Assembly: GCA_039630235.1 (NCBI GenBank)
Contig: JBCNVI010000001.1
Span: 363,059-427,058 of the forward strand
Length of the DNA stretch: 64,000 nucleotides
From: Candidatus Hydrothermales bacterium
Lineage (GTDB): Bacteria; Hydrothermota; Hydrothermia; Hydrothermales; JAJRUZ01
Direction of reading: 5' to 3'
Made by a program: the position numbers and the translations under genes. Below are positions 1 through 16,491 of this stretch, in pieces. Numbering within the stretch: position 1 is the stretch's first letter; each line of letters begins with the position of its first letter. Under the pieces are notes generated by a model. That model searched no databases and was not told the origin of the DNA. It worked only from the letters and a program-made list of their open reading frames with translations.

Positions 1-2239
1 TTTTCATCATATTCTCATATCTTCTTTTTGCATTCAAATTCGCATAGTTATAATGACAATCACCTATATGACAACCTGACCATAAAACTGCACCTGCCCC
101 CTTTCTTAAAGCATGTATTACAAAATCAGGCTTAATCCTTGCTGAACACATCGATCTAATTATTCTTGCGTTTGGTGGATATTGGAACCTCGAAACACCT
201 GCAAGATCAGCACCTGCATAAGAACACCAGTTACAAGCAAAAACAATAATCTTTTCTGAGGGATTCTCCTCCAAAAGGGCATCTATCTGCGCATATATAG
301 CCTCATCCGGGAAGTGCCTCATATCTATCGCTTCAGATGGACACTCAGCACCACAAGCTCCACACCCAGCACAAGAAGCCTCAATCAGCTTAGGAACATT
401 CCTCTCTTCTTTACTCCAAATCCATGCATTATATGGACAAACATTTGCACACATACCACATCTTTTACAAGCTTCAGGATCTATAACAGGAGTTAATGCT
501 TCTACGGTCACCTCTCCTTTCGCCATTAAAATACCTGCTCTTGCTGCTGCGGCTGATGCTTGAGTTACGCTGTCTTTTATATCCTTTGGCCCTTCCGCAC
601 AACCTGCAAGAAACACACCACCTATTGCTGTATCAACAGGCTTTAACTTAGGGTGTGACTCCAAATAAAAACCATCTTCTGATAAACTTAAGGCAAGTTT
701 CTTTTGAACTTCATCCCTATCTCTTCGTGGAACAAGACCAACAGAGAGAATTATCATATCGGTTTCAAGCTCAACTGTCCTTGAAAGTAACGTATCCTCT
801 GCATATATCTTGAGTCTTTTATCAGGCAACTCTTCAACACGTGAGGGTAATCCCCTTATATAGATCACTCCCTCTTCCTTACTTCTTCTATAAAGATCCT
901 CAAAACCTTTACCAAAGGCTCTCATATCTTGATAGAAAACGTAAATTTGGGTATCGGGCCAGTGCTCCTTAATAAGGAGGGCATCCTTAACTGTGTTCAT
1001 GCAGCACACATTTGAACAGTACTTGTTTGTTCTAAGATCTCTTGAACCTACACATTGAATAAAGGAAACAATCTTTGGAATTTTACCATCTGAGGGTCTT
1101 ATGAGATTTCCTTTGGTTGGACCTGCTGAATTTATAAGTCTTTCAAACTCAAGAGAGGTTATGACGTTCTCATAGATTCCATAGCCATAATCGTTATTTT
1201 CCCTTGGATCGTACACATCCATTCCGGTAGCAACTATTATCGTTCCAACATCAATTTCAACTATCTCGTCCTTATCGTTAAAGTTTATTGCCTTCTTTTC
1301 ACAGGCTGCAAGACACTCCTCACAAACTATGGCACCTGCTTTAATGTTTAAACAGAGTTTTGGATCAATTATGTATTGAGTTGGAACAGCCTGAGGGAAG
1401 GGAATATAAATCGCTTTTCTTGTCGCCATACCAACATCAAACTCATTGGGATGCTCTTGAGGACAAACCTTTGAACAATCTCCGCAGGCTGTGCACTCTT
1501 TTGTTACGTATCTTGCCTTCTTCTCAATTTTAACATGAAAGTTTCCTATATAACCTGTAATTTCTTTTACGGTAGAATTTGTAAAGATCTTTATGTTGGG
1601 ATGTCTTCCAGCCTCAGCCATCTTAGGAGCAAGAATACAAATTGAACAGTCCATAGTGGGGAAAGTCTTATCAATCTGAGCCATTCTTCCTCCTATTGAA
1701 GGCTCCTTTTCTACCATGAAAACTTCGTAACCTGTATCGGCAAGATCAAGAGCAGCTTGAATACCTGCAACTCCACCACCTATTACCAAAGCTTTTCTGA
1801 TTATCGGGACTTTAGGCTCCTTCTGTTCTTTTAAAAACCTTGCTCTTGCTACAGCTGCCTTAACAAGGTCTTTAGCTTTTTCAGTAGCTGCTTTCCTATC
1901 ATAAAGATGAACCCATGAACAGTGTTCCCTGATATTTGCCATCTCGAGCAAGTATTTATTAAGTCCTGCTTCCTCAATTGCCTTTCTAAAGGTGGGTTCA
2001 TGTAGCCTTGGTGAACAAGATGCTACAACTACTCTGTTTAGTTTATATTCTTTAATATCTCTTTTTATTATCTCTTGACCTGGTTCAGAGCAGGTGTACT
2101 TATAGTCTCTTGCTATAACCACATTAGGTAAAGTAGACGCAAACTGTGAAACATCTATACAATCTACACTTCCTGCTATGTTCAAACCACAATGGCACAC
2201 ATATACTCCTATTCTTATTTCTTCTCCGCTCTGTTTCAT
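1..2239 (-). CDS. hdrA: Heterodisulfide reductase subunit A (HdrA) with fused C-terminal MvhD-like domain. The 3' end runs off the window start.
   Basis: Hand translation of the minus strand from the ATG at 2237-2239, which has a GGGGG RBS. N-terminal Cys cluster ([10 protein letters not shown]), FAD fold GxGxxG ([18 protein letters not shown]) and ferredoxin CxxCxxCxxxCP motifs. C-terminal [15 protein letters not shown]...GCHIGDCHY is MvhD-like. No stop codon is reached before position 1. The gene is absent from the ORF track because it has no in-window stop. Confidence 0.75.
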
Positions 2240-2254
2240 TTTTCCCCCTTTCTT

Positions 2255-3037
2255 TTAAATTGTCAAAGGTTTTATTCTATGAAATTCAAAACCTATTTTA
2301 TTTTTATCAAGTCCAAGTGAATAAGCTAAAAGTTCAAAATAAAAGTAAACGGGTAATTCTCTTTTTTCATGCACAAGCACATTCTCAAAATGGGAAAAGC
2401 AAGAAGGACATATAACAACTATTCCATCAACTTCCCCAAAACTTTCAATTCTTTTCTTTGCTAATAAGTAGGAAAGTTCTTTATCTGTTAGTGAGTTAGG
2501 ATAACCGCAGCATTCATCTTTAGCAACTATCGCCTCGGTCCCCAAAAGTTCAATCATTTCCTTTAATATATTCACTTTTTTTAGCTCTCCAAACTCTTCA
2601 GAAATTAGGGCGCTTGGTCTTTTAAAATGGCAACCTTCATGAACTGCAAATTTTTTTCCATTAAGTGGAACAACTATTTTACTTTTTATTTCATTTTTTT
2701 TATTTTTCCACAGGGTGTAAATAAGGTGCTCTACTCTAAATGACTTTAAATTAGCAGAACTTTTCTTAATGGTATAAAGTGTTTCGAAACAGCCGTTACA
2801 TATAGTAAACATTGTTGATCCTAAACTTTTCGCTTTTTCAAGGTTTTTTAAGCCAATGTTTTTCCAATCTTTATAAGACAAAGATCTAATCCATACTGGA
2901 TCCGGACAGCAGACAAAATCCTCTGCAGTTTTATAGTTTATTTCTAACTTATCGAGAACAAACCTTGTAGAGTAGTCAAAACCCGGAAACTTTCTTAAGG
3001 CAAGACATCCTGGAAAATAAACGAAGTTATCTTTCAT
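2255..3037 (-). CDS. hdrB: Heterodisulfide reductase subunit B-like protein (CCG-domain protein)
   Basis: 260-aa ORF with paired Cys-rich CCG-type motifs (CCPDP, CNGCFE, CCGYP, CPSCF). It lies directly between hdrC and hdrA. Confidence 0.72.
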   Translation of the reverse strand: MKDNFVYFPGCLALRKFPGFDYSTRFVLDKLEINYKTAEDFVCCPDPVWIRSLSYKDWKNIGLKNLEKAKSLGSTMFTICNGCFETLYTIKKSSANLKSFRVEHLIYTLWKNKKNEIKSKIVVPLNGKKFAVHEGCHFKRPSALISEEFGELKKVNILKEMIELLGTEAIVAKDECCGYPNSLTDKELSYLLAKKRIESFGEVDGIVVICPSCFSHFENVLVHEKRELPVYFYFELLAYSLGLDKNKIGFEFHRIKPLTI

Positions 3038-3039
3038 AG

Positions 3040-3453
3040 TTAGCCTCCTATTTTAATAACCTCTTCTCTCCATTTTTTTGCTCTTGGGGAGATCTGAACA
3101 GAAAAGCCTTCTTTTCTAACAAGTACAAGCTCTTGCATAGGAATTTTTGGAGCATAGCCTCTTTCAGTTGCTTTTGTTCTAAGTAAAAATATAATTTCAA
3201 CGAAATTGACCTTTTGGGGACAGTTTTCAAAACATTCATAACAAGTTGTGCATCTCCATATATCCTCTGTTTTTAAAACATCCTCTGCTCCTATATAAAC
3301 CATTTCAATCAGTTTTCTTGGATTAAATTTTTCTGGACTTAAATTAAATACTGGACAAAAGGATGAGCATTTACCGCACTGATAACACATTAAAATGCTG
3401 TGATCTTTCAGTTCTCGACTTATTTCTTCTTTAAAATAGGGATTTAGCCTCAT
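3040..3453 (-). CDS. hdrC: Heterodisulfide reductase subunit C-like 2x[4Fe-4S] protein
   Basis: 137 aa with two ferredoxin motifs, CYQCGKCSSFCP and CTTCYECFENCP. Its ATGA start/stop overlaps the upstream porG. Confidence 0.72.
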   Translation of the reverse strand: MRLNPYFKEEISRELKDHSILMCYQCGKCSSFCPVFNLSPEKFNPRKLIEMVYIGAEDVLKTEDIWRCTTCYECFENCPQKVNFVEIIFLLRTKATERGYAPKIPMQELVLVRKEGFSVQISPRAKKWREEVIKIGG

Positions 3454-4025
3454 CTTTTAACCTCCTCTTTTAAAAATTCCTCAGCAAGTTTTATTCCCTC
3501 CTCAAAGGCTTTTATATTTATATCCACATAGTCCCTTCTAACTGAAATTTCTATCGATTTTTTTAAGGCTTCTGCTGAACATACACCTGTGATTCTTTGA
3601 AGAACACCAAGCATTATTGAATTTGCTACCAGCTTATTTCCCAGCTCTTCAGCTCTTTTTGTAGCTGGAATCGGAATATATTCTATGTCGTATCTTTTAT
3701 TATCAATTGTCACAAGATCAGAGTCATAAATTAGAATTCCTCCACTTTTAATTTTATGAAGATAGGTAGTATAGGCTTCTTGAGACATACAAACAAGAAC
3801 ATCTGGTTCTGTAACTTTAGGATAGGGCACCATTTCATCAGGGTTATCTGCTATAACAACACCTGAGGAGCATGCTCCGCCTCTTGCTTCTGGACCATAA
3901 CTTTGTGTCATAGAACTATTTCTACCCTCAAAAATTGTTATTCCTTGACCAAGAATATAACCTGATAAAACTATTCCTTGGCCACCAAAACCAGCAAATT
4001 GAATTTCTCTTATTGACCTTTTCAT
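3450..4025 (-). CDS. porG: 2-oxoacid:ferredoxin oxidoreductase, gamma subunit
   Basis: 191 aa. The N-terminus FAGFGGQGIVLSGYILG is typical of POR/KOR/VOR gamma subunits. ATGA overlap with the beta subunit. Confidence 0.8.
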   Translation of the reverse strand: MKRSIREIQFAGFGGQGIVLSGYILGQGITIFEGRNSSMTQSYGPEARGGACSSGVVIADNPDEMVPYPKVTEPDVLVCMSQEAYTTYLHKIKSGGILIYDSDLVTIDNKRYDIEYIPIPATKRAEELGNKLVANSIMLGVLQRITGVCSAEALKKSIEISVRRDYVDINIKAFEEGIKLAEEFLKEEVKR

Positions 4026-4873
4026 TTTTCTTCTCTCCTTATTCTCTCGTTATTTTCCATCAAAATTTCTAAATAAGAGGGTTTATTTATATCTACGAAC
4101 TCACCAACAACTATGTTTCCTCCCATTAAAGATAACTCGGCATCTTTTGGATCGATTCCATTTTTGATAATACTTTTTTCTTTATAATACTTCATCTCAT
4201 CAAGACCTTCTCCGATTTTGTTTGGTCTACCAAAGCCAGTTGGACAAGGAGAAATAATTTCAATAAAACTAAATCCTTTCCTCTGTAAAGCCTTTTTAAT
4301 ACTTTGTCTTAGATGATAGGCATGAAGACAAGTCCATCTTGCAACAAAAGTTGCTCCTGCTGATGCTGCAAGATAGGGCAGATTAAAGGGATACTCAAAG
4401 TTTCCATAGGGAGTTGTTGTTGTTTTAGCTTTATATGGCGTAGTGGGACCGAATTGGCCTCCAGTCATTCCATAATTAAAGTTATTTACACATATACAGA
4501 TCAGGTCAAAGTTTCTTCTTGCAGCATGGATGAAATGGTTACCTCCAATTGCTATAATATCTCCGTCACCTGAAAATACGATAACCTTCATTTCTGGTTT
4601 TGCAATTTTAAGACCTATAGCAAAAGGAATAGGCCTTCCGTGAGTTGTGTGATAAGAGTCAACCTTAACGTAACCGGCTACTCTACCAGTACATCCTATA
4701 CCGCTTACAATAGCAATTTCCTTTGGATCAAGATTTAATTCCTCAAAAGCATAAAGCATACTACTCATTGCAATTCCAAGGCCACAACCTGAACACCAAA
4801 TATGAGGCCATCTCTCTTCCCTGATCCACCTTGATAACCTATGTTTAACCTCCTTTTTTACCTGAACCTCCAT
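4022..4873 (-). CDS. porB: 2-oxoacid:ferredoxin oxidoreductase, beta subunit (TPP-binding)
   Basis: 283 aa with a TPP-binding region (GIGCTGR...GDGD) and an N-terminal Cys cluster typical of the beta subunit. Confidence 0.8.
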   Translation of the reverse strand: MEVQVKKEVKHRLSRWIREERWPHIWCSGCGLGIAMSSMLYAFEELNLDPKEIAIVSGIGCTGRVAGYVKVDSYHTTHGRPIPFAIGLKIAKPEMKVIVFSGDGDIIAIGGNHFIHAARRNFDLICICVNNFNYGMTGGQFGPTTPYKAKTTTTPYGNFEYPFNLPYLAASAGATFVARWTCLHAYHLRQSIKKALQRKGFSFIEIISPCPTGFGRPNKIGEGLDEMKYYKEKSIIKNGIDPKDAELSLMGGNIVVGEFVDINKPSYLEILMENNERIRREEK

Positions 4874-4886
4874 TTCTTCCCCCTTT

Positions 4887-6044
4887 TTAAACTCTAATTT
4901 TTAAAAACTCCTTTATCTTCTCTACAATTTCTTGTGGAGTAATTAAATCTCCCCCAAGTTTATTTACTCCTAAAACGGATAAATCACTCTTTAGGGCCTT
5001 TAGCACTTCCCCTCTTACCTGTCCTGAATTAATTTCAGGAACAACGATAAGTGATACTTTTCTTGAGAGCTCCTCAATCTTCTCATAGGGGAAGGGCCAA
5101 ATTGTAATTAATCTAAATAGTCCGGCTTTAATTCCTTCTTTTCTTAAAAGTTGAACAGCTTTTAAAGAACTTCTTGCTGTTATCCCGTAAGATATAAGTA
5201 ATATTTCAGCATCATCTGTTTGAACTTCTTCATACTTTATTATTTTATCTTTATTTTTCTGAATTTTATCGAGTAATCTTCTTACAAGTCTTTCATGAGC
5301 TTCAGCAGTGATATTTGGGTAGCCTCTTTCATCGTGAGTTAAGCCTGTCATATGAACAAAATAGCCTTCACCGGCTAGGGCCATTCTTGGAACAAGATCC
5401 TCGTCAGGTAGGTACGGAAGGTATCCTTCTGGAGAGACGTTTGGTTTTTTTCTATTAACTATCTCTATCTCTGACTCATCTGGAATAACAACTTTTTCTC
5501 TTAAGTGTCCAACAGCTTCGTCAGTAAGTATTATAACTGGTATCCTATAAATTTCAGCTGTATTGAAGGCTTGGATTGTCAAGTCAAACATTTCTTGACA
5601 TGAAGCTGGAGCATAGGCAACAATTTCATAGTCGCCGTGGGAGCCCCATTTTGCCTGCATTATATCTCCTTGACCAACAAGAGTTGGAAGTCCGGTAGAT
5701 GGGGCTCCTCTTTGGACATTTACAATCACGCAGGGTACTTCAAGCATAACAGCAAGTCCAATATTTTCGAGCATTAGTGACATACCAGGACCTGAGGTTG
5801 CGGTCATAGATTTTAGTCCGCCACAGGAGGCTCCAATAATTGCGGCCATTGAGGCAAGTTCATCTTCCATTTGTATAAAGACACCTCCAAATTTTGGGAA
5901 TCGGAGTGAAATCCATTCTGCAATTTCTGTGGAAGGAGTTATAGGGTAACCTGCGAAGAATCTACATCCAGCGGCTATTGCGCCTTCGGCGCAAGCATGG
6001 TCGCCGAGCATATAGTGAACACCTGTAAGTATTTTTGCGCTCAT
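4887..6044 (-). CDS. porA: 2-oxoacid:ferredoxin oxidoreductase, alpha subunit
   Basis: 385 aa with pyruvate-flavodoxin/ferredoxin oxidoreductase alpha-subunit-like domains (transketolase-like core). Overlaps the delta subunit by ATGA. Confidence 0.8.
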   Translation of the reverse strand: MSAKILTGVHYMLGDHACAEGAIAAGCRFFAGYPITPSTEIAEWISLRFPKFGGVFIQMEDELASMAAIIGASCGGLKSMTATSGPGMSLMLENIGLAVMLEVPCVIVNVQRGAPSTGLPTLVGQGDIMQAKWGSHGDYEIVAYAPASCQEMFDLTIQAFNTAEIYRIPVIILTDEAVGHLREKVVIPDESEIEIVNRKKPNVSPEGYLPYLPDEDLVPRMALAGEGYFVHMTGLTHDERGYPNITAEAHERLVRRLLDKIQKNKDKIIKYEEVQTDDAEILLISYGITARSSLKAVQLLRKEGIKAGLFRLITIWPFPYEKIEELSRKVSLIVVPEINSGQVRGEVLKALKSDLSVLGVNKLGGDLITPQEIVEKIKEFLKIRV

Positions 6045-6328
6045 TTTTTCACCTCGACTTTTTCAACGATAATAGCAAATTCAGGGCATATTCTCTCGCA
6101 GAAACCGCATCCTGTGCAATTTTCGGGGTTAAATATAGGGAAGTGATATCCCTTTGAATTTAGTTTAGGAGATCTCGTGAGGGAGTTTGTCGGACAAAAT
6201 TCTATACAGAAGGAACAACCCTTACAGACGTCTTCTAAGATAATTACGTTACCTTTTATTCTTTTTATTTCGTTATAATCAAGAGGAGTCCTCCAAAAAA
6301 CTTCGTTATTCTTTTTTATTTCCTCCAT
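6041..6328 (-). CDS. porD: 2-oxoacid:ferredoxin oxidoreductase, delta subunit (2x[4Fe-4S] ferredoxin)
   Basis: 95 aa with two CxxCxxCxxxCP motifs (CKGCSFCIEFCP, CTGCGFCERICP). It is the first gene of the operon, downstream of an AT-rich promoter region. Confidence 0.78.
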   Translation of the reverse strand: MEEIKKNNEVFWRTPLDYNEIKRIKGNVIILEDVCKGCSFCIEFCPTNSLTRSPKLNSKGYHFPIFNPENCTGCGFCERICPEFAIIVEKVEVKK

Positions 6329-6467
6329 TCCTTAGGCCTCCTTTAAAATTTATTTATTATAAAAAAATTAGTACCCCTTATTAATTTTATCTAAATTTTC
6401 CCTGCTCTAATTTATTAAATAAAAATTTTTACAAATTCAAAATTTATATTTGATTTAAAATAGTTTT
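6329..6467 (-). promoter_or_regulatory. AT-rich intergenic region, probable promoter/5'UTR of the por-hdr operon
   Basis: The only sizeable non-coding gap between the upstream subtilase gene and porD. The seven downstream genes are translationally coupled and leave no room for an internal promoter. Confidence 0.3.
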
Positions 6468-9074
6468 TTAAAAGAAAACTATCTTCTCTTTTTTGGCTCC
6501 TTTTCTTCCTTTTATTTCAACAAAATATATACCAGGTTTTATCCCGTAATCTCTCAATTCAAACTCTAAACTATATAAACCTTTTTCAAAATGGAATCTA
6601 TTCATCAATCTTTGTACCTTCTTTCCTCCTGCATCATATAAATTAATCTCTATTTCATCAGGATAAAGCATTGTAAAGAAAACTCTAAGCTTTGAACCTG
6701 TAACATTTGCATTAAACTTAACAAAATTAACTTTAAAATCATATCTTATTTTTAAAGGACCGTAGTAATAAACTCCCTCAGAAGTCTCAGCTATTGCCTT
6801 ATATTCATACTCTTTACCCTCCTCAACATTCCTATCAATATATCTAAAGGGCGTCTTCAAGAAGCGATTTTCAGAAATAAGTTTAAAATCCTCTCCATCT
6901 TTTTTGTATAATAAGAACCTATTAACAATACCTCCATAATGAAAGGTTATTAAAATACCTTCAGAAACTGAAGACAAAGCAAAGAAACTCTCCACAGAAG
7001 AAAGCTTTTGAATTTGACCAACATTTCCTGTTACAACCAAAGCAAAAGGATATTTAGTTCCTGCAGGTTTCGGCTGCACTACTCTATAAGCCCTTACAAC
7101 AATCCTCCATTCACCCACAGCTGGATTCTGAAGCCTAAAAAGTTCCCATAAATTCAATCTATCAAAAGAACCTCCAGGAGTAGACCATCCTCCTGAAGTG
7201 ACATTTCCCCTATATATAGTGCCAGTAGGACTTATAACTTTTAAATCAAGATCATTGACAATAACAGGATAGGTATTTGCACTTCCAGGGTAATCAATCC
7301 ATGAAAGAACTATAATTAATGGGAAACCACTTCCCAAGACATTCAATCTATACACAATAGAATCACCTGTCGTAAACTGATTATCACCTGGAGGTAAGTC
7401 ACCGTCAACAAATAAAAGTTTTCTTGATTCACCAAACCATAAGGCATCTTCAAGTGTTATCCTTCCTGCACCTTCATAAATGTTTGGAACACCTGAATTA
7501 CCGCTTCCTTCGTCATCATCAATATCATACAGCATATCTCTTGCAGATGCTACAAGGACAGCTCGTACTAAAGCAGATGAGGGATTATGAGAAGGTGCAG
7601 AGTTTCTTGTCCCGTTTCCGTAAAAACCTTCCTTAAAATACTGTATAACTAAGGCAGCTGCCCCTGCTGCTGTTGGTGTAGCCATTGATGTTCCTGAGTA
7701 TGCAATGACAGCACACGCAGTTCCATTATCGGCCGAGTTTACATCTTCTCCAGGTGCTGTTATATCTGTGCCCAAACGATTATCTCCAAGGTTATTAGGT
7801 GCTCCATAGGAACTCCAAGTTGTCTTATATTCCTGATTGGGTGCTCTCCTTGTTGCAACTACTGTTACATCATTTTTTGCAGTAGCTGGTCGAGAAATTC
7901 TTCTTCCATTTCCACAACTTAAAGGTGGAACACAATCACCGCTATTTCCAGCAGCAAAAAAGACATTCATATCAATGTAATTCCAAACAAAATTGTCAAT
8001 ATCAATTGCTTCCCCCTCATAACCACCTGCTGAGCAACGAGTTAGAATCATATTGCAAACGTAACCCCAAGAGTTTGTATGAATCCTTGCACCTTCATTA
8101 TAAGCGTCGCGCAATGCAGTATAAAAACCAGGAGGATTTGCTCCTATAGGCTCTTGAGAAACAAGACGGGCTTTATAAGCCATTCCCCTGTACTGTAAAT
8201 TTGAAGTTTGTTGATCAGTTCCGCCACAGGCAGAACCAGCTGTATGAGTTCCATGATCACCATTTGCAAAACCTCCCCCATCATAATCAAAAAGCCTAAC
8301 CACCTTCTTTAGGCCCCCTACAGTTCCCCTAAAAAAACAATGATTTGTATCGAGCCCATTATCCATATGCCCTATAATAACATTCTGACCACGTATTCCC
8401 CTTGCCCATATTGAGGTATCTACACTTACATTTGTTTGAATAACCCATCTTGAAGCATCATTAAATGTAGTTTTATCATACTCTCTACCAATCACATAGA
8501 CACCTGGGTGATTTGCAATTTCTGAGAGTTTAAAAGGTTCTATTTTTAAACCAAAGGAACAGAGGTGCCTTTCTTCTTCAGTTTTCCTATAACCAACATA
8601 TTCTATCTCTGCCCCAAGGTTTTTCGCCAAAGAAACAACTTCATCAAGATAGGATACATCAAAAACATGAACGTAAAATCTGTGCTTAATGTCCTTTTCT
8701 CTAATATATAAATCAAAAGCTTCACCTGTAAACTTATAAATGGGTTTATAAAGAGAAACCCATCTTACATTCCTAATCAGTGATAGCTCCTTTATCTTTT
8801 CTTGGGGTTCCTTTGAATCAATTTTAACAATAAAGGTGTTTTCATGAACGTACCATGGAGTAAACTCTATTTTATAAAGTGAGGAGAGAGCCTCTCTTTC
8901 CTGTGGAAGAGGTATCTCTTTGAATTGAATTAAGATGTAGTTTACGCCTTCCCTATAGGAACCTTCAAGTTCTGGAAAAACTTTAGGAATTTCATCTTTA
9001 AGGGGATCAAAACTTATAGTATGAAAGTTAATTTTTAAATCGGAGATAAGAAAAAAGAAAATCAAAAATTTCAT
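6468..9074 (-). CDS. Secreted subtilisin-like serine protease (peptidase S8) with T9SS-type C-terminal sorting domain
   Basis: 868 aa with an N-terminal signal peptide. Catalytic triad motifs are HMDNGLDTNH (Asp), GDHGTHTAGSA (His) and GTSMATPTAAGAAALV (Ser). The C-terminus GIYFVEIKGRKGAKKEKIVFF resembles the Por_Secre_tail/CTD. RBS AAAGGGG upstream of the start. Confidence 0.8.
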   Translation of the reverse strand: MKFLIFFFLISDLKINFHTISFDPLKDEIPKVFPELEGSYREGVNYILIQFKEIPLPQEREALSSLYKIEFTPWYVHENTFIVKIDSKEPQEKIKELSLIRNVRWVSLYKPIYKFTGEAFDLYIREKDIKHRFYVHVFDVSYLDEVVSLAKNLGAEIEYVGYRKTEEERHLCSFGLKIEPFKLSEIANHPGVYVIGREYDKTTFNDASRWVIQTNVSVDTSIWARGIRGQNVIIGHMDNGLDTNHCFFRGTVGGLKKVVRLFDYDGGGFANGDHGTHTAGSACGGTDQQTSNLQYRGMAYKARLVSQEPIGANPPGFYTALRDAYNEGARIHTNSWGYVCNMILTRCSAGGYEGEAIDIDNFVWNYIDMNVFFAAGNSGDCVPPLSCGNGRRISRPATAKNDVTVVATRRAPNQEYKTTWSSYGAPNNLGDNRLGTDITAPGEDVNSADNGTACAVIAYSGTSMATPTAAGAAALVIQYFKEGFYGNGTRNSAPSHNPSSALVRAVLVASARDMLYDIDDDEGSGNSGVPNIYEGAGRITLEDALWFGESRKLLFVDGDLPPGDNQFTTGDSIVYRLNVLGSGFPLIIVLSWIDYPGSANTYPVIVNDLDLKVISPTGTIYRGNVTSGGWSTPGGSFDRLNLWELFRLQNPAVGEWRIVVRAYRVVQPKPAGTKYPFALVVTGNVGQIQKLSSVESFFALSSVSEGILITFHYGGIVNRFLLYKKDGEDFKLISENRFLKTPFRYIDRNVEEGKEYEYKAIAETSEGVYYYGPLKIRYDFKVNFVKFNANVTGSKLRVFFTMLYPDEIEINLYDAGGKKVQRLMNRFHFEKGLYSLEFELRDYGIKPGIYFVEIKGRKGAKKEKIVFF

Positions 9075-9142
9075 TTTTCCCCTTTAATAATTATAAGTTA
9101 TCTCATTGCTTAAATCAGTATTCTTACTTTATTCTTTTAAGG

Positions 9143-10024
9143 ATGAAAATAATAATTTTAATTTTTTCCTTTATGACCTTTGACTATGTGCGTATCTCTT
9201 ATACAGGAGTTGAGGCTCTTCAGAAAGATAATCACTTTTTTAAAAGCTTTGAAACCTCAAAGATATTTTTTAGACCTATATTTAATGAAAACCTTAATGA
9301 TAAATTCCTTTTAGCAAGTGGCTATACATCCTACTTTCTAGATATCTATACAGTTTATCTATCTTTAAGTTTTAAGAAATTACCTATAGCGCTTTTTTCA
9401 TTTAATGCAGGTAAATTTGAGGAAACTGATACAAGTGGATTTAAAACTGGCAGAGTAATTACTCCCACTCACTTAGGTTTTATTATAGGAGCGCCTTTTG
9501 TTCCACAAAAAAAACTCTTTGATTTAGAAAAGGGATTAAGTTTAAAAATTTTTTATGTTAAATTAAAAGAGTTTTCGTCATTCGCCTTTGCCTTAGATTT
9601 CTCTATACTAAAAGCCTTTTATTTTAACAACTTACCTTTTAAGGCTTCTCTTGATTTAAGAAATATTGGTATTCCCACAAACAGAAAGGCAAGCTCCTTA
9701 CCGTATGAACTCTCTTTTTCACTTTCAAGTGAACTTAAAAACAAAATAAAAAGCTTTATACCGTCACTTGGATTTTCCGTTGAAAAAAATCTATTTTCCT
9801 ATAGGATTTCTTCTCTTTTGGAATTAAACAGATTCATAAGTTTAGCTATGAACTTTGATTCAAGAAGAAGAGAAACAGCAGAATCAGAGGGACTTCACCG
9901 CGTTGTTACAGGTTTTGGATTAGGTATTTTCTTAAAAGTTAAAAAAGTCTCAACTTTTTACTCCTTTATACCTTCAGGTATTTTTCAAGATCTTCACAAA
10001 GTTGATCTACAAATTAGTTTTTAG
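9143..10024 (+). CDS. Hypothetical outer-membrane protein (signal peptide, C-terminal Phe)
   Basis: 293 aa with a hydrophobic N-terminus, beta-strand-like alternating patterns and a terminal ...LQISF. No recognisable catalytic motif. Confidence 0.45.
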   Translation: MKIIILIFSFMTFDYVRISYTGVEALQKDNHFFKSFETSKIFFRPIFNENLNDKFLLASGYTSYFLDIYTVYLSLSFKKLPIALFSFNAGKFEETDTSGFKTGRVITPTHLGFIIGAPFVPQKKLFDLEKGLSLKIFYVKLKEFSSFAFALDFSILKAFYFNNLPFKASLDLRNIGIPTNRKASSLPYELSFSLSSELKNKIKSFIPSLGFSVEKNLFSYRISSLLELNRFISLAMNFDSRRRETAESEGLHRVVTGFGLGIFLKVKKVSTFYSFIPSGIFQDLHKVDLQISF

Positions 10025-11582
10025 TCTTTTTTTAAGTTTACTTATAGCACTTTTTCTTTACCACAAAGAAAAAAAGGCAAAAAAATTAATTTTTTTAAGA
10101 ACTCTTTCACTTTTTTTTCTTTTCCTCTTCTTACAAAATTTCTCAATAAAGGTAAAGGAAAGAACAGAAATTAAGCCTATGCTTTTCCTCGAAAGTAATC
10201 TAGAAGCTGAATTCTCTGAGAGAGTAAAAGACTTAGATTTTAACGTAGTAAAAATTGATAATGAAGATGACTTAATAAACTCGTTAAAAAATATTAGCAA
10301 TTCAGAAATATTTTACTTAGGAAAATTTGACTATGAGAGAAAAAGGGAAATTTTAAACCTCTTGTCAAAAAACAATATAAAGTTCAATTACTTCTATTCT
10401 GAAAAATTTCAAGGTAAAGACTTTAAAATAAATCCACCCTATCTTATAAGAAAAGAAAACAAAGAGGGCTTTTTAATTGAGGGAAAAAACATAAAACTTG
10501 ATATTTTTGAAAACAATATTAAAAAGAAAAGTATTAGAGTTGACGGAAATTATCTATACACTCCTGAATTTAGACCAAATACCACAAGAAAAATAACCTT
10601 TACTTCTAACGATATAGAAGAAAACCTCTATGTAACTGATCTTGACCTAGATACTAAAATAAAAATCACGTCCTCACAATATCACCCTATAGTTGGATTT
10701 TTAAACAGATTCTTCAAAAATCACTTAAATGCCAACATTGAAATTGAAATAAGCGGTAAGATTTATAACAAATTAGAAGGAGAACCAGACTTTTACGTAA
10801 GTATATTCAAAGAATTAAATGAAGATATAAAATCTATCTTAGTATTTTCACCGGACACAGTACTTGAAGGTGAATTTGAATTAGAATCGAATAAAGAGTT
10901 AGGCGTCGATAAAATAGAAATAAGGAGAAATTTAGAGGGTGACACGGTCTTATCTTTTTATTGTAATAAGAAAAAATTTCCTATTGTTTTGAAACATAGA
11001 GAAAGAATTTTACTTACAACTCCTGACCTATGGAAGATAAATCTTGCTACAGACGGAGATTTTGAAAAATTACTAATTGAGGTGATAAGGGAGAACTTCT
11101 TACCAAGCTTAAATCCTAAAATTGTTCCTCTTTTCTCAAATATAGAAAGAGAAGGAGAATTTAAACTATCATTTCTAATAAAAAAATTTGGAGAAATAAG
11201 TGATCTAATTGAGTTTAAATTAAATGAAAAAAGATTTTTCTTAAAAAAAGTAGCAGATAATATTTACGAGTCCTCACCGATCAAATTTAATGAGGGGAAA
11301 TATAAGATAAATATCTTTAACAAAAGTTTCGATTTAATAGTAGCTGAAAGGGAAGTCAGAAAAAGGTATTACGACATTTCCCTTCTTGAGACAGCTAGGG
11401 AAATAACAGGGGGAGAAAAAATCAATTTAGAGGACAATTTATATGAAAAATTAAAGAGAAAAAATTTAGAAAAGATAGGTGAGAAAGAAATTTTCTTACT
11501 AGAAAGCCCATTTTTTCTTTTTATATTCATAGCGCTTTATTCTTTAGAAATTTATCTTAGAAAAAGGGGAGGCCTTTTATAA
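10002..11582 (+). CDS. Hypothetical membrane-anchored protein
   Basis: 526 aa with an N-terminal TM segment and a Lys/Glu-rich body. Overlaps the upstream gene by 23 nt and the downstream gene by 1 nt, which suggests an operon. Confidence 0.45.
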   Translation: MIYKLVFSLFLSLLIALFLYHKEKKAKKLIFLRTLSLFFLFLFLQNFSIKVKERTEIKPMLFLESNLEAEFSERVKDLDFNVVKIDNEDDLINSLKNISNSEIFYLGKFDYERKREILNLLSKNNIKFNYFYSEKFQGKDFKINPPYLIRKENKEGFLIEGKNIKLDIFENNIKKKSIRVDGNYLYTPEFRPNTTRKITFTSNDIEENLYVTDLDLDTKIKITSSQYHPIVGFLNRFFKNHLNANIEIEISGKIYNKLEGEPDFYVSIFKELNEDIKSILVFSPDTVLEGEFELESNKELGVDKIEIRRNLEGDTVLSFYCNKKKFPIVLKHRERILLTTPDLWKINLATDGDFEKLLIEVIRENFLPSLNPKIVPLFSNIEREGEFKLSFLIKKFGEISDLIEFKLNEKRFFLKKVADNIYESSPIKFNEGKYKINIFNKSFDLIVAEREVRKRYYDISLLETAREITGGEKINLEDNLYEKLKRKNLEKIGEKEIFLLESPFFLFIFIALYSLEIYLRKRGGLL

Positions 11583-11926
11583 TGCCCTTTGTTCTTAGAT
11601 ATAAAAAAAGCTTCAGAGCAAAACATCACCTTCTATCCTATAAGGGATCTCCTGAAAACCCTCACTACCATACTTATACACTCATTGTTTCCATTGATGC
11701 AGGTGAAAGAAATAAAGAGGGATATACAATTGACTTTATGGATATAAAAAACTTAATAGATAAACTTATTCCTTATGAAGATGAAGATTTAAATTTAAAA
11801 TATCCCTTTTCAACATCTACTGAAAACTTAGCAGAATACTTCTTTGAAGAAATAAGTAAGATTTTTCCAGTAAAAGAAGTTGAACTTTGGCAAGATGAAA
11901 ACTTTTGTGTAATTTATAGAAAATGA
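11582..11926 (+). CDS. 6-pyruvoyl-tetrahydropterin synthase family protein (QueD-like)
   Basis: 114 aa. The segment FRAKHHL...HYHTYTLIVSIDAGERNKEGYTIDFMDIKNLIDKLI aligns to the PTPS/QueD zinc-binding His motifs (HRL...HGHNYKV...G.V.D...LK). Confidence 0.55.
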   Translation: MPFVLRYKKSFRAKHHLLSYKGSPENPHYHTYTLIVSIDAGERNKEGYTIDFMDIKNLIDKLIPYEDEDLNLKYPFSTSTENLAEYFFEEISKIFPVKEVELWQDENFCVIYRK

Positions 11927-14586
11927 AAATCTTTCTATTTTTAGTATTTTCTTGGGAACAAAAAGTTAATTATAAAATAGATTTAGAACTTGACACCCTT
12001 ACTCAAATACTTATGGGTCACCAAAAAATTACATATAAAAACTTCTCTCCCGATACATTAAGAGGACTTTATCTTTATCTCTATACAAATGGTTTAAAAA
12101 ATTTCGATACAGAAGCCACAGAAGTTCTTTTTAAAAACTGTCTTTTTTCTTTTTCAAAAATATTTGGAAAATTTATAGAAGATGCCTTTATAGAGATTGA
12201 CTCAATAAAAATAAGAAACCAGAAAGTCAACTTTAAAATAGACGAAACAGTCTTATGGGTACCGCTCCTTGAAAAATTAAAACCTGAAGATTCATTAAAT
12301 CTTTTAATATTTTTTAGAACAAAAGTTCCAAAAATTTTAAAGTTTAGGGCTGGAAGAAATTCTAAACACTATGATTTTGGACAATTTTTTCCTGTTTTAT
12401 GTGTATATGACAAAAAAGGTTGGCACAATAGAAAATGGGACTTTTTCTCCGAATTTTATCACAACTTTTCAAACTTTTATGTAAAAGTAAAATTACCAGG
12501 TAACTACATAGTTGCAGGAGTAGGAGAATGTTTATCAAAAAACGACACCTTGGTAACCCAGGAGGAAAAGGAAGTAATCTTTAAGGCAGATAATGTAGTT
12601 GACTTCTTTTTCTCATGTAGTCCCCTATTTTTATTTCAGGATACTTTGATAGATAGTACGCATATAATAAGTTTTTATAAAAAAGAAAACAAAGCTTATA
12701 AAGACTCTTTCTTAATAAGAACAGTTAGGGCCTATGCTTTTTTAAAAGAATTATTCGGAGAGTACCCATATAAGTGGTTAAAGGCTGTTGATGGATTAAT
12801 AGAAGGTGGTATGGAGTATCCAGGAGTTATTCTGTGTGGTGATGATGATTTTTCCTTAATACTTCATGAGGTGGCTCACACATATTTTATGGGGGCCTTA
12901 GCAAATAACCAAGCAGATGAGGCTTGGCTCGATGAAGGAGGTGCTACCTTTATTACAGATTTTTATGAATTTAAAAAAGAAAAGAATCTAGGGATCTTTT
13001 ATAAAAATTCAAAACAAATAACCGAGATCATAAGGGAAGGGTCTGATGATACTCTTTTACTCCCTGCTCATGCTTTCAAAAATTATTACTTTACTGTTTA
13101 TTCAAAGGGATCACATATATACGCAATGCTTTTAAACATAATGGGAGAGGAGAAATTTAAAGAGTTTTTAAGAGAATACTATAGAGATTTTAAATTTAAA
13201 CATCCGGATACCGATAGTTTTTTTAATAAAGCTGAGAAAATATATGGAGAGACTCTGGAATATATCAAAAATTACTATGTTAAAAGTTTACCTGTTCCAG
13301 ATTTTGGGATAAAAGAAGTTAAAAAAATTAAAGCTAAAGATAAATGGCTGAGTAAAATAAAAATAAAAAATTCAGGGAATACTTTTTATCCCCTTGATGT
13401 TTACGTTATAAACCAAAAAGATACAGTGAAATTTAAGTTAAAACCCTTTAAAAAAGACACTCTAATTGAAGTTTATACGGATTTTGAGCCTAAAAGATAT
13501 GCTCTTGACCCCTATAATTTTTCTCTTGATATAAAAAGAATAGACAACTTTTATCCCACAAGATTTGAGAAAAAACTTTCACTGATACATAATCCTGAAG
13601 ATGAGAGTCTATATTTAAATTATTTTCCGTTTGCATTTTATTCTCCAAAATCAGGGCTTTCTCCTGGAATTAACTATATTTTTTCCTATATCAGAAGATA
13701 TCCGTACTTTGAAGGAGAAATATACTATTCTTCAAAAGAAAAGATCTTCTACTATAATATCAAATATTCTTTCTTTTTCCCCTATATCAAACCCGAGAAT
13801 ATAATCTACTTAAAATCTTTGGGTTTTGAGAAAAACTACTATTTTTGTGCAGGACTTGATAAGATCTTTAGAAAGCATTTAAAAGATCCAAAGAGTGCTT
13901 ACTTTAATTTAGAGTTTGTATACAAAGACTCAAAAGTAGAAAGTAGATTTTTTGACAACGTAAATTATGGCGGATTTAAACTTGGAATTACTCTATTTCC
14001 GAAAACTGACCTATTTTCCAATAGACTCGGCATTTCTACAGAAATTTATCCACAAAAAGTATCAGGCGACCTAAGTTTTAGAAAAATCTTCTTCATCTAT
14101 GAAAGTACTCTATCACCTTTCTCTGATGATGTAAATGAGCTTTTTCCCCTTAAACTTAAGTTTAATTTTTATTACGGAAAAATTGAGGGAAATTTTCCTA
14201 AACAGGAATATATTTCTAACTTCTCAAATTCTTTTTACGATATCTTAGACTTAAAGATTGAGAGAAACTTTATTCTTTCCGGTAACTATACTTTCGTAAA
14301 TGAAGGCGTGTTTTTAAAGGGGTATAATCTCTTAAAATTTAAGAAGTTATTTTTATTTTCACTTGAAAAAAGCTTTAAACATATAGGCTTTTTTTATGAA
14401 AAAATTCTATGGGGCGAAGATAATCTTTGGAATTTTGGCCTAATTTTTAGAAAAGATTTTTACAAAAACAAAATACGGATCAACATATACCTACCCCTAT
14501 ACATTAATAACCCAAAGTTTAACAGTGAGAGAAGAAATTTTGATTTTAGACTAAAAATTAATTTAAAATTTTTCGATATAACTTAA
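11923..14586 (+). CDS. M1-family (gluzincin) metallopeptidase-like protein with long C-terminal extension
   Basis: 887 aa. It carries a GGMEYPG (GAMEN-like) exopeptidase motif, then HEVAH with a downstream Glu (WLDEGGATF) forming HEXXH-(18)-E. N-terminal hydrophobic leader. Confidence 0.6.
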   Translation: MKIFLFLVFSWEQKVNYKIDLELDTLTQILMGHQKITYKNFSPDTLRGLYLYLYTNGLKNFDTEATEVLFKNCLFSFSKIFGKFIEDAFIEIDSIKIRNQKVNFKIDETVLWVPLLEKLKPEDSLNLLIFFRTKVPKILKFRAGRNSKHYDFGQFFPVLCVYDKKGWHNRKWDFFSEFYHNFSNFYVKVKLPGNYIVAGVGECLSKNDTLVTQEEKEVIFKADNVVDFFFSCSPLFLFQDTLIDSTHIISFYKKENKAYKDSFLIRTVRAYAFLKELFGEYPYKWLKAVDGLIEGGMEYPGVILCGDDDFSLILHEVAHTYFMGALANNQADEAWLDEGGATFITDFYEFKKEKNLGIFYKNSKQITEIIREGSDDTLLLPAHAFKNYYFTVYSKGSHIYAMLLNIMGEEKFKEFLREYYRDFKFKHPDTDSFFNKAEKIYGETLEYIKNYYVKSLPVPDFGIKEVKKIKAKDKWLSKIKIKNSGNTFYPLDVYVINQKDTVKFKLKPFKKDTLIEVYTDFEPKRYALDPYNFSLDIKRIDNFYPTRFEKKLSLIHNPEDESLYLNYFPFAFYSPKSGLSPGINYIFSYIRRYPYFEGEIYYSSKEKIFYYNIKYSFFFPYIKPENIIYLKSLGFEKNYYFCAGLDKIFRKHLKDPKSAYFNLEFVYKDSKVESRFFDNVNYGGFKLGITLFPKTDLFSNRLGISTEIYPQKVSGDLSFRKIFFIYESTLSPFSDDVNELFPLKLKFNFYYGKIEGNFPKQEYISNFSNSFYDILDLKIERNFILSGNYTFVNEGVFLKGYNLLKFKKLFLFSLEKSFKHIGFFYEKILWGEDNLWNFGLIFRKDFYKNKIRINIYLPLYINNPKFNSERRNFDFRLKINLKFFDIT

Positions 14587-14617: not shown

Positions 14618-15142
14618 ATGGACTTCGTAAAGGTTATTGAAAAAGTTTTGTATATAATCCAGCTTAAGGAAGAGGCGATAAAAGAGGTCTCTGAAAAAAG
14701 AGAAAATTTACCCTGGGCAATTTTAGTTGTGGTAATTGCTGGAATTGCAAGTGCAATAGGTTCACTTAAAATTATTCCTGGCATAATAACTTTGCCAATA
14801 CTTGCAGTAATTTTATCTTTTATAGGTGTCGGAATTTTATGGGTAGTTGCAAGAATCTTAGGTGGAAAAGGAGAATATATTCCATACTATATACCAATAG
14901 CAATGACCTATATTTTACATTGGGTGTCAGTTATCCCAATTATTGGTGGCTTTCTTTCTACTCTTGCATCAATCTGGATGATCATTGTTGCAGTAAAAGT
15001 CACACAAACTGTTCATCAACTTGACCTTGCCAGAGCAATAATAGTAGTTCTTATTCCAATTGCTATAGCCTTTTTCCTTTCTATACTTATAGGAGCAGCA
15101 GCACTAACAGTCGCTGGCTTAAAAGGATTAGGACTTTTTTAA
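14618..15142 (+). CDS. Yip1-domain polytopic membrane protein
   Basis: 174 aa with five predicted TM helices and Yip1-like topology. Confidence 0.45.
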   Translation: MDFVKVIEKVLYIIQLKEEAIKEVSEKRENLPWAILVVVIAGIASAIGSLKIIPGIITLPILAVILSFIGVGILWVVARILGGKGEYIPYYIPIAMTYILHWVSVIPIIGGFLSTLASIWMIIVAVKVTQTVHQLDLARAIIVVLIPIAIAFFLSILIGAAALTVAGLKGLGLF

Positions 15143-15153
15143 AGAAAAAATAA

Positions 15154-16491
15154 AAAATTTTCCCCTTAAAATTTAATAATAAATTACTAACAGAAAAAGA
15201 ACTTTTAGTAAAATATTCATATGATGAGTCCCCCTTAAAAGGTAAAATACCTGAATTTGTTTTTATCCCTGAAAATGTAGAGGATGTTTCACAGTTTGTT
15301 AAATTTTGTTTTAGAAAGAACATATATATAACACCAAGAGGTGGGGGAACAGGTCTTTCAGGAGGTGCTGTTCCACTAAAAGGTGGTGTCATCTCCTTTG
15401 AAAAAATGAACAAGATCATAGATCTTGATCCTATTAACCAAACGATTACTCTTGAACCTGGGATAATCACAGGTGATATAAACAAAGTCCTTTTAAGCGA
15501 AAACCTATTTTATCCACCTGATCCTATGAGTCTTGACTCTTGCACAATAGGAGGAAACGTAGCAACAAACGCAGGTGGACCAAGGGCCTATAAGTACGGG
15601 GTTACATCAAATTACCTGATTGAACTTGAATGCGTGTTACCAAACGGAAACGTAGTTAACGTGGGGAGGGGAACGAAAAAGTGGAAAACAGGTTATAACC
15701 TTTTGAGTTTGCTCTGCTCATCCGAAGGCACTCTTGCCCTATTTACAAAAATAAAACTAAAACTAATACCAAGGCCAGAAAAAGAAGTACTAACAGTAAT
15801 GAGTTTTCAGGAAAATGAAGATCTCTTTAATTTTGTTATAAAACTTATCAAAAATAAATTTTTTCCCTCTATAATTGAGTTCATGGATAAGGGATGCGTA
15901 AGACTTGTCAGAAAAAAGGTTAAACACATGTTTCCTGAGGAACACTCGTTGCTTTTTGTAGGATTTGATGGAGACGAAGAAGAAATTGAGAAGATCTTAG
16001 AAAAACTTTATGATTTTGCGGAGAAAGAGAAAATAGAAAGAATTTTTATAGGCGACGATAAAAGCTCTGTAGATAGAATTTGGGAGATTAGAAAAAAAAT
16101 GTTTTATGAAACAGAAAAAGAGGGATTTAAGGTTCACTCAGAGGATATCTGTGTAACAATTAAAACAGCTCAAAACTTTATAAATGATGTGAAGAATTTA
16201 TTTAAAAATTACTCGAAAGAACCTTACATATTTGGACATCTAGGAGACGGAAATATTCATATTAACTTGACATATAAAAAAGACGAAGAGAGATTGATAA
16301 GAAAAATTTCAGAGGAAATATGGGATCTTGCTATTAAAATTGGGGGTACAATAACAGCTGAACACGGGGTGGGATACCTGAAAAAAAAGGGATTTAGGAA
16401 AGAAACAGATCCAATTTTATATAAAATACAAAGGGAAATTAAAAGAACTTTTGATCCAAAGGGTATCTTGAATCCTGGAAAACTCTTTTAA
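15154..16491 (+). CDS. FAD-linked oxidase (GlcD / D-lactate dehydrogenase family), start codon unresolved
   Basis: The frame is open from the stop at 15151. FAD-binding PCMH motifs (ITPRGGGTGLSGGAVP) lie upstream of the first ATG at 15406, so the ORF-track start is too short. There is no ATG, GTG or TTG between 15154 and 15405; only ATT or ATA could serve. The C-terminal FAD-oxidase_C-like region is present. Confidence 0.6.
   Translation, partial: KIFPLKFNNKLLTEKELLVKYSYDESPLKGKIPEFVFIPENVEDVSQFVKFCFRKNIYITPRGGGTGLSGGAVPLKGGVISFEKMNKIIDLDPINQTITLEPGIITGDINKVLLSENLFYPPDPMSLDSCTIGGNVATNAGGPRAYKYGVTSNYLIELECVLPNGNVVNVGRGTKKWKTGYNLLSLLCSSEGTLALFTKIKLKLIPRPEKEVLTVMSFQENEDLFNFVIKLIKNKFFPSIIEFMDKGCVRLVRKKVKHMFPEEHSLLFVGFDGDEEEIEKILEKLYDFAEKEKIERIFIGDDKSSVDRIWEIRKKMFYETEKEGFKVHSEDICVTIKTAQNFINDVKNLFKNYSKEPYIFGHLGDGNIHINLTYKKDEERLIRKISEEIWDLAIKIGGTITAEHGVGYLKKKGFRKETDPILYKIQREIKRTFDPKGILNPGKLF

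Follow-up and report, generated by a model that had tools for sequence, protein, structure and literature searches.

The window analysed here is a 64-kb stretch of DNA from a Candidatus Hydrothermales bacterium (contig JBCNVI010000001.1, positions 363,059 to 427,058 of the forward strand), and coordinates given without a locus name are positions within it. At its start lies a cluster of seven genes, korD-korA-korB-korG-hdrC-hdrB-hdrA::mvhD, which runs on the minus strand from position 6328 to position 1. The cluster combines a 2-oxoacid:acceptor oxidoreductase (Kor) with heterodisulfide reductase-like proteins (HdrC, HdrB and HdrA), the HdrA protein being fused to an MvhD-like domain (HdrA::MvhD). 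Protein families were assigned by Pfam and NCBIfam profiles, with the curated NCBIfam cutoffs applied. The domains recovered are POR_N with PFOR_II, TPP_enzyme_C, the POR gamma domain, a delta subunit with two [4Fe-4S] clusters, an HdrC-like dicluster domain, two CCG domains, and HdrA with FlpD/MvhD. The features are listed in Table 1.

Table 1. Positions of the kor-hdr genes, their notable elements and the neighbouring genes in the 64-kb window (aa, amino acids; nt, nucleotides; TPP, thiamine pyrophosphate; ORF, open reading frame).
Feature	Position	Strand	Description
korD	6328-6041	minus	95 aa, delta subunit
korA	6044-4887	minus	385 aa, alpha subunit, POR_N + PFOR_II
korB	4873-4022	minus	283 aa, beta subunit, predicted TPP binding
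korG	4025-3450	minus	191 aa, gamma subunit, POR domain
hdrC-like	3453-3040	minus	137 aa, two dicluster motifs
hdrB-like	3037-2255	minus	260 aa, two CCG domains
hdrA::mvhD	2239 to window edge (position 1)	minus	746 codons inside window
MvhD-like domain	2..256	minus	residues ~662-746; C669, C672, C698, C723, C728; motif GCHIGDCHY; [2Fe-2S]
Elongated cluster motif	1301..1354 (1354-1301)	minus	HdrA C296-x9-C306-xx-C309-xxx-C313, inserted ferredoxin domain
Spacer upstream of korD	6329..6467	minus	139 nt, AT-rich, intergenic; borders S8 peptidase gene
Peptidase genes (S8, M1, M28)	6468-9074, 11923-14586, 24492-25229
FAD-linked oxidase ORF	15406-16491 (region 15087-16491)
Glutamate dehydrogenase gene	16551-17804
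Operon-like run	18165-24492
Antiporter-like genes and glycogen set	38282-50560
V/A-type ATPase A-subunit gene and neighbours	50652-54944
PorV homologue	62707-63807

An earlier note on this DNA had placed seven genes on a single strand, and all of them are present at the positions claimed. The ATGA start/stop overlaps that it described at three junctions (6041-6044, 4022-4025 and 3450-3453) are real, but the remaining junctions, which it had given as gaps of 3-17 nt, measure 13 nt (korA/korB), 2 nt (hdrC/hdrB) and 15 nt (hdrB/hdrA). A GGAGG-like ribosome-binding site lies 6-10 nt 5' of all seven start codons. No intergenic gap within the cluster is large enough for a terminator, and because korG and hdrC overlap by 4 nt there is no space for a promoter or terminator between the kor and hdr genes; the separation of the two halves by such an element, which the same note had considered, thus finds no room. 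As read from this spacing, the seven genes are a translationally coupled operon. The spacer upstream of korD is probably the operon start; it contains a ribosome-binding site (AAGGAGG) and a promoter-like TTAATA-17 nt-TATAAT arrangement (6384-6356), which is a consensus match only, and promoter-like matches occur across the region at chance frequency (29 observed vs 26.7 expected). An Rfam scan of the window gave no match.

The cluster was said in the earlier note to run past the window start, which is correct, but all that position 1 cuts off is the final ~75 codons of hdrA::mvhD, the HdrA::MvhD relatives being 819-821 aa long. The search for a hydrogenase or formate dehydrogenase partner after hdrA, which that note had proposed, found none in the closest relative (L009, HdrA 96% identical) or in other relatives. 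In L009, hdrA::mvhD encodes 821 aa and a convergent gene lies 55 nt further. Relatives with a 70% identical HdrB have unrelated genes downstream (a phosphodiesterase and YfhO; phage-like genes). In a WOR-3 relative (L004, 13562-20783) the operon is followed by small ORFs without known function, an SLT lytic transglycosylase and an integrase, a run which looks like an integrated phage or mobile element.

The oxidoreductase half of the operon had been labelled por (pyruvate), a label that has to be replaced: the enzyme falls in the Kor/Oor clade, and PorA models score ~100 bits against cutoffs of at least 550. A PorABCD identity was rejected on the same grounds (PorA_Arch 104 bits vs a cutoff of 550, PorB 82 vs 405, PorC 51 vs 270). 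KorA passes NF006412 (2-oxoacid:acceptor oxidoreductase alpha subunit; 583 bits, cutoff 411) and matches the alpha subunit of the Pyrococcus 2-keto acid:ferredoxin oxidoreductase (1YD7) at 429 bits. KorB carries TPP_enzyme_C (119 bits) and stays below the curated beta-subunit equivalog (246 vs a cutoff of 364); its best solved relative is the beta subunit of a 2-oxoglutarate ferredoxin oxidoreductase (8YS5_C, 209 bits), and C27, C30, C61 and C210 are candidate [4Fe-4S] cysteines whose ligand role is assigned by position only. KorD has two [4Fe-4S] clusters in CxxCxxCxxxCP motifs (C35/38/41/45 and C71/74/77/81). Its top NCBIfam match is OGOR_delta, below the cutoff of that model, and OorD (8YS5_D) is the solved structure that it matches best over a single domain. 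The similarity of KorD to the polyferredoxins FwdF and MvhB was discarded as evidence of docking, the scores being sums over repeated domains and the best single domain being that of OorD. Separate gamma and delta subunits are present, as the four-subunit Kor/Oor type requires, and by these matches KorDABG is a four-subunit 2-oxoacid:acceptor oxidoreductase of that type. The best equivalogs for the substrate are OGOR/Oor models, every one of them scoring under its cutoff; 2-oxoglutarate is the best guess for the substrate, the nearby glutamate dehydrogenase gene being context only.

Among the Hdr proteins, HdrB and HdrC are far more diverged from their methanogen counterparts than is HdrA. HdrA::MvhD passes the HdrA2 model NF040770 (1167 bits, cutoff 1100), and its HdrA part aligns with the crystallised Methanothermococcus HdrA (5ODC_A) at 852 bits and 58% identity. 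The flavin adenine dinucleotide (FAD) motif GGGVAG (residue 154), the N-terminal cysteine cluster and the DCSIC pair (C198/C201) beside the flavin are intact, and both the inserted and the C-terminal ferredoxin domains are kept. The MvhD-like domain scores 115 bits against the FlpD profile and ~100 bits against the MvhD chains of 5ODC and 9SW2; in known Hdr complexes MvhD is the port for electron entry. The kor-hdr cluster (1-6328) has a G+C content of 0.374, with ~0.40 in hdrA and korA, compared with 0.321 for the rest of the window (6329-64000). This raised G+C content, together with the identity of HdrA to its methanogen homologue, could reflect strong constraint or an ancient archaeal transfer.

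In HdrC, both CxxCxxCxxxCP motifs (C23-33 and C68-78) are intact; its C-terminus is ~45 residues shorter than that of methanogen HdrC, and it reaches 92 bits against TIGR03290 (cutoff 160). HdrB is ~25-30% identical to methanogen HdrB and scores 127 bits against TIGR03288, below the cutoff of 345. An HdrB with 100% identity to that of the window is annotated in a Candidatus Hydrothermales metagenome-assembled genome from the WOR-3 phylum. All ten of its CCG cysteines are present (C11, 43, 44, 80 and 83, and C136, 176, 177, 210 and 213); nine of the ten are invariant among ten aligned relatives, C83 nearly so. HdrB is predicted to be the disulfide/dithiol site, with two non-cubane [4Fe-4S] clusters. 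In this lineage and in the relatives nearest to it (59-86% identical), the HdrBs are 260-261 aa long and lack ~30 residues between the two CCG domains which are kept in methanogen HdrB and in the next-closest HdrBs (291-294 aa, 37-40% identical), the latter being Kor-linked where the context was checked. The divergence of HdrB and HdrC and the missed cutoffs are consistent with a disulfide substrate other than the heterodisulfide of coenzymes M and B (CoM-S-S-CoB). A loss of FAD or iron-sulfur ligands in HdrA, raised in the earlier note as a possible objection, is not seen, and the ten HdrB cysteines, the HdrC motifs and the MvhD cysteines are likewise intact.

Gene contexts were collected for HdrB and HdrA homologues from 185,579 species-representative genomes, from look-ups of the encoding contigs and from an HdrA-seeded metagenome scan, and were mapped by tblastn; the locus counts that follow are not phylogenetically independent. 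Exact-sequence look-ups of the window KorA and of the 100% identical HdrB gave no contig, so relatives supplied the context. Dozens of non-redundant loci, which belong to different phyla and vary in gene order, carry the same gene set. Kor and HdrA::MvhD lie together in WOR-3/Hydrothermales, in unclassified bacteria, in Bathyarchaeia and in Thermodesulfobacteriota, Desulfomonile among them; at least three gene orders occur, and the layouts fall into three types. The window has the type I layout, korDABG-hdrC-hdrB-hdrA::mvhD, which is found in WOR-3, Hydrothermales, two unclassified bacteria (L018 and L092) and one Bathyarchaeia genome (L063). A rearranged form, korDABG-hdrA::mvhD-hdrC-hdrB, occurs in metagenome-assembled genomes of Thermodesulfobacteriota, including Desulfomonile (L069-L090). 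Type II, mostly from Bathyarchaeia, has no hdrB and reads [HdrC-like::GltD-like NAD(P)H flavoprotein]-hdrA::mvhD-korDABG (L091 6560-13230, L094 6445-13286, L096-L107, L127, L138, L144 and L163). The flavoprotein partner of this type is GltD/NfnA-like; it is fused to an HdrC-like domain and replaces HdrC and HdrB. Type III is korABG-HdrL-[MvhD::HdrC::HdrB fusion]-hdrA::mvhD (L165, 149-10403; L120, L129 and L130), with an HdrL of 1138 aa and a triple fusion of 557 aa. In L165 the hdrA frame is broken into two pieces (7950-8579 and 8595-10403), possibly through a frameshift or an error of assembly.

Flanking genes vary by lineage and are unrelated housekeeping genes (EF-G, SerA, PFK, peptidases). 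In the HdrA-seeded sample, among loci showing 6 kb or more of sequence on each side, Kor linkage was found for 11 of 12 HdrAs of this clade and for none of the 8 other HdrAs. The third arm of the non-redundant Kor-linked loci is HdrB in 25 cases, a GltD-like protein in 15 and both in 1, and is hidden by a contig end in 2. Neither the MvhD domain nor the inserted ferredoxin domain is missing from any of the Kor-linked HdrAs that were aligned, or from any of the 120 closest homologues; both ports are also kept in all Kor-linked loci of the metagenome sample, bar two that end at a contig edge. The Kor-HdrA::MvhD pairing has thus been shown, from these gene contexts, to persist when its genes are reordered, when it passes from one domain of life to another and when the third arm is swapped. 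The pairing recurs in distant bacteria and archaea and therefore probably represents one uncharacterised enzyme complex. The alternative that kor and hdr have no functional connection and adjoin by accident, or through inheritance confined to WOR-3, is most improbable and can be regarded as effectively excluded, since the pairing is found in Bacteria and Archaea with different gene orders and flanks and the stop and start codons of korG and hdrC overlap.

A further shared trait is found in the inserted ferredoxin domain of HdrA, where the second cluster motif carries an insertion of 5-8 residues between its first and second cysteines, giving Cx7-10CxxCxxxC overall. This insertion is present in all Kor-linked HdrAs aligned (including L009, L014, L018, L063 and L069-L092) and in 120 of the 120 closest database homologues (at least 67% identity; P0131-P0250). 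The other sampled HdrAs are without it: the canonical CxxCxxCxxxC is the form in most of them, the methanogen structure included, and Cx4C occurs in two from archaea. The inserted domain has been described as the ferredoxin-binding, low-potential exit of HdrA (PMC9430772), and in methanogen supercomplexes the HdrA cluster HA6 leads to a polyferredoxin that feeds formylmethanofuran dehydrogenase (PMC13580544). The site of the insertion is therefore suggestive, hinting that Kor may dock there. As a predictor of Kor linkage the motif was judged good rather than perfect, given L111 and L093, and it depends on ancestry, such that a Fisher test is descriptive only.

The explanation favoured here is that the seven genes encode a soluble redox complex with Kor on the low-potential arm of an HdrA hub; taken as a whole, it is held tentatively, at slightly less than an even chance. 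KorDABG would be wired directly into the HdrA::MvhD-HdrC-HdrB flavin/iron-sulfur hub, with no exchange of free ferredoxin. KorD would dock at the inserted ferredoxin domain of HdrA, which is the low-potential exit, and HdrC and HdrB would form the high-potential arm leading to a disulfide/dithiol couple. The fused MvhD would be the port for a mid-potential partner, encoded elsewhere in type I genomes, for which the candidates are a module of the HdrL/Flx/GltD-like kind that oxidises NAD(P)H, or an MvhAG hydrogenase. Bifurcation would have this donor feed, via the HdrA FAD, both the disulfide and Kor, which would reductively carboxylate an acyl-CoA. Confurcation would have a 2-oxoacid and a dithiol jointly reduce a mid-potential carrier via the same FAD. 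The standard potentials of the proposed triad (~-500, -320 and -140 mV) balance.

Several observations argue for this placement of Kor. The Kor couple has a potential of ~-500 mV, equal to that of ferredoxin, the native partner of the low-potential arm. In type III and in the Flx-Hdr-Kor clusters of tubeworm symbionts, the NAD(P)H-donor and disulfide arms are already filled, so that the low-potential position is the only one left for Kor. The wiring is supported by structures in which HdrA cluster HA6 feeds CO2-fixing enzymes directly (PMC13580544), and by the insertion specific to the Kor-linked HdrA clade in the ferredoxin-binding domain. A link by bifurcation or confurcation between the oxidoreductase and HdrCBA-MvhD, as suggested in the earlier note, is supported by these sequence tests, and bifurcation itself we infer. 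It is a plausible but tentative extension, put somewhat below an even chance, that Kor-HdrA::MvhD is the core of a widespread, uncharacterised bifurcating/confurcating class in which Kor is hard-wired to the low-potential arm of HdrA. The high-potential arm would be exchangeable: HdrCB and a disulfide in type I, the HdrC::GltD-like flavoprotein in type II, and HdrL with HdrCB in type III.

Other observations weigh against the favoured explanation. No mid-potential donor (MvhAG, FdhAB, FlxABCD or MetFV) is present in the operon, in the 64-kb window or in the flanks of the type I relatives, and this missing nearby donor in type I is the main weakness. Among 44 WOR-3 genomes listed in the WOR-3 pangenome study, hdrA2 is recorded in 26 and mvhA in only 11 (PMC12542636). 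Physical contact between Kor and Hdr is presumed from gene linkage, and no fusion of a Kor to an Hdr subunit was found in any locus mapped. The NAD(P)H flavoprotein of type II sits on an HdrC-like domain, which would put NAD(P) on the high-potential arm and alter the redox arithmetic. HdrB and HdrC are well under the curated cutoffs, and the 2-oxoglutarate assignment is based on family resemblance alone. The elongated motif is also found in L111, which has assessable flanks and no Kor nearby, and in L093 (Altiarchaeota, on a short contig); it may thus be a clade marker that reflects ancestry rather than docking.

Kor could instead be the donor at the MvhD port, in the place of MvhAG, FdhAB or Flx. 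Electrons from 2-oxoacid oxidation would then fill the HdrA flavin, which would bifurcate them, one branch leading via HdrCB to a disulfide (in type II, to NAD(P)+ instead) and the other to free ferredoxin, the outcome being an unusually strongly reducing ferredoxin made via the inserted ferredoxin domain. Such wiring would leave the operon genetically self-sufficient, and there are more than 40 non-redundant loci with Kor and no other donor beside HdrA::MvhD. In characterised Hdr systems, the variable module beside hdr/mvhD is established to be the donor, and the residues of the donor port are conserved here (the DCSIC pair of HdrA and CHxGDCH of MvhD). It would, however, make little energetic sense because Kor already reduces ferredoxin directly at ~-500 mV; the type III and Flx-Hdr-Kor clusters have an NAD(P)H donor besides Kor, and the carboxylating direction would be impossible. 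The donor role and the strongly reducing ferredoxin that goes with it are together considered unlikely.

It is also improbable that no bifurcation takes place, the operon encoding either a linear 2-oxoacid:disulfide oxidoreductase, with electrons passing from Kor to HdrA and on to HdrCB, or co-regulated enzymes linked through free ferredoxin. KorD is an ordinary ferredoxin-interacting subunit, closest to OorD, which counts in favour of this reading, as does the lack of gene fusions. Ferredoxin-dependent heterodisulfide reduction by HdrABC-type enzymes is established in Methanosarcina acetivorans, and the window protein belongs to the HdrA2 family. Both forms would nevertheless waste a drop of more than 300 mV, and they sit poorly with a linkage so tight that it outlasts rearrangement and exchange of the third arm. 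The FAD, all clusters, and the MvhD and inserted ferredoxin domains are retained across very distant Kor-linked lineages, and HdrAs with a lost port exist elsewhere (PMC9430772); the conservation of both ports in Kor-linked HdrAs argues for a three-way and against a linear function.

The favoured complex, with Kor on the low-potential arm, could operate in either direction. The oxidative direction, with 2-oxoglutarate derived from glutamate in a peptide-degrading organism, is somewhat more plausible, because genes for peptidases, glutamate dehydrogenase and an acetyl-CoA hydrolase/transferase are present in the window. The reductive direction would fit the flagging of Hydrothermales as positive for the reverse tricarboxylic acid (rTCA) cycle, a call made partly from these kor genes (PMC12542636). 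The peptidase genes (S8, M1 and M28) and the glutamate dehydrogenase gene lie within 20 kb of the operon, and their proximity suggests a peptide catabolism that would supply 2-oxoglutarate to Kor.

If Kor is truly wired to HdrA, this would bear on how anaerobes supply or dispose of electrons at ~-500 mV for 2-oxoacid synthases and oxidases. Reductive carboxylation (synthesis of 2-oxoglutarate or pyruvate, and CO2 fixation of the (ro)TCA type) could then be driven by NAD(P)H or H2, with no need for a pool of free low-potential ferredoxin; in reverse, electrons from a 2-oxoacid and from NAD(P)H or a thiol could be merged in amino-acid fermentation. The scope would take in carbon fixation by the reverse or reversible TCA cycle, which has been flagged for Hydrothermales (PMC12542636), and the redox balance of peptide fermentation in abundant sediment lineages (Bathyarchaeia and WOR-3). 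Metagenomes commonly contain the module, Desulfomonile-related genomes also have it, and a similar cluster has been described in the cultured Syntrophobacter fumaroxidans, so a test in culture is probably feasible. The finding overturns nothing; it indicates a probably common, unstudied redox complex and offers a testable hypothesis on the supply of low-potential electrons.

Elsewhere in the window, the S8 peptidase gene next to the operon is also the upstream neighbour in two WOR-3 relatives (L001 and L004). The PorV (type IX secretion) homologue near the window end fits with secreted peptidases. The FAD-linked oxidase ORF begins at position 53 of the FAD_binding_4 profile and overlaps an ORF on the opposite strand; its true start may lie upstream, or a truncation or frameshift may have affected the gene. 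In the operon-like run are genes for CheR, for a DUF4388/TPR protein, for a 591-aa protein carrying a DnaA-type ATPase domain and for one of 606 aa without a family match. Further along, two Mrp/Nuo-type antiporter-like subunit genes stand beside a zinc alcohol dehydrogenase gene, and after them comes a compact glycogen set (GH77, branching enzyme, GalT-like, GH57, glycogen synthase and ADP-glucose pyrophosphorylase). The gene for a V/A-type ATPase catalytic A subunit (585 aa) has no other ATPase subunit genes adjoining it; its neighbours are the acetyl-CoA hydrolase/transferase gene (possibly a succinyl-CoA:acetate CoA-transferase) and a gene of the alanine dehydrogenase/PNT family.

The methanogen MvhAGD-HdrABC complex (5ODC) resembles the window operon in the domains and ligands of HdrA, the CCG motifs of HdrB, the dicluster motifs of HdrC and the [2Fe-2S] module of MvhD. 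It differs in that the window MvhD is fused to HdrA, hydrogenase genes are absent nearby, HdrB and HdrC are shorter and highly diverged, and a 2-oxoacid oxidoreductase shares the operon; the host is moreover bacterial, and CoM-S-S-CoB is not expected in it. The supercomplexes of Hdr with Mvh or Fdh and with Fmd/Fwd (PMC13580544, PMC13518236; M. hungatei 7BKB) also couple a carbon enzyme working at ~-500 mV to the HdrA exit (HA5/HA6) via ferredoxin-like domains. The partner in the window is instead a TPP-dependent oxidoreductase with a small 8Fe delta subunit and no polyferredoxin, known here from its genes alone. HdrA2B2C2 of Methanosarcina acetivorans likewise has an HdrA with a C-terminal MvhD fusion, and uses F420H2 (reduced coenzyme F420) and CoM-S-S-CoB, with no Kor partner. 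The Thermococcales KGOR and the Helicobacter OorDABC (8YS5) match KorDABG in subunit set, domain order and best sequence matches, but their electrons go to free ferredoxin or flavodoxin, and hdr genes do not accompany them. The window operon differs from the sulfur-oxidising sHdr systems (hdrC1B1A-hyp-hdrC2B2 with lbpA) in having hdrC and hdrB in one copy each, and none of the window ORFs scanned resembles LbpA/GcvH or DsrC.

The closest precedents are two clusters mentioned in passing elsewhere. In tubeworm symbionts and Thioflavicoccus mobilis, a four-subunit korABCD lies inside flxABCD-hdrABC within an rTCA gene cluster (PMC6315080). The authors proposed a bifurcation that shuttles electrons directly to Kor (PMC6315080), and co-expression has been shown (PMC11636981). 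Compared by description, those clusters add the FlxABCD NADH dehydrogenase, a thiol:fumarate reductase (tfrAB), aclAB and other rTCA genes. The window operon has none of these; it is bounded upstream by a peptidase gene, and in relatives the downstream gene is convergent or unrelated. The 'HdrAL/POR' cluster of Syntrophobacter fumaroxidans (Sfum_0012-0018; PMC5947623) combines, as in the window, an Hdr-like set with a 2-oxoacid:ferredoxin oxidoreductase, but it contains HdrL and went undetected in the proteome. Going by its description, it probably has the type III layout of L165, L120, L129 and L130. The literature search turned up these passing mentions, no description or characterisation of a Kor-Hdr complex, and no biochemical or structural study. 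The suggestion in the earlier note that the arrangement is not a standard unit therefore holds in that the unit is uncharacterised, but not in the sense of its being wholly undescribed.

Known partners of HdrABC-type bifurcating enzymes are hydrogenase, formate dehydrogenase, the Flx NADH dehydrogenase, methylene-tetrahydrofolate reductase and F420H2. The twelve classes of bifurcating enzyme in a 2018 survey include no 2-oxoacid oxidoreductase (PMC6085437), and in the WOR-3 pangenome study korABCD and hdrABC/mvhADG are separate entries and an Mvh-Hdr complex is assumed (PMC12542636). The individual parts of the window operon are ordinary members of known families, and it is their combination that falls outside the catalogued bifurcating classes. 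What the gene contexts add to these known systems is a Kor-HdrA::MvhD core that is widespread in WOR-3, Bathyarchaeia and Thermodesulfobacteriota, with three interchangeable third arms.

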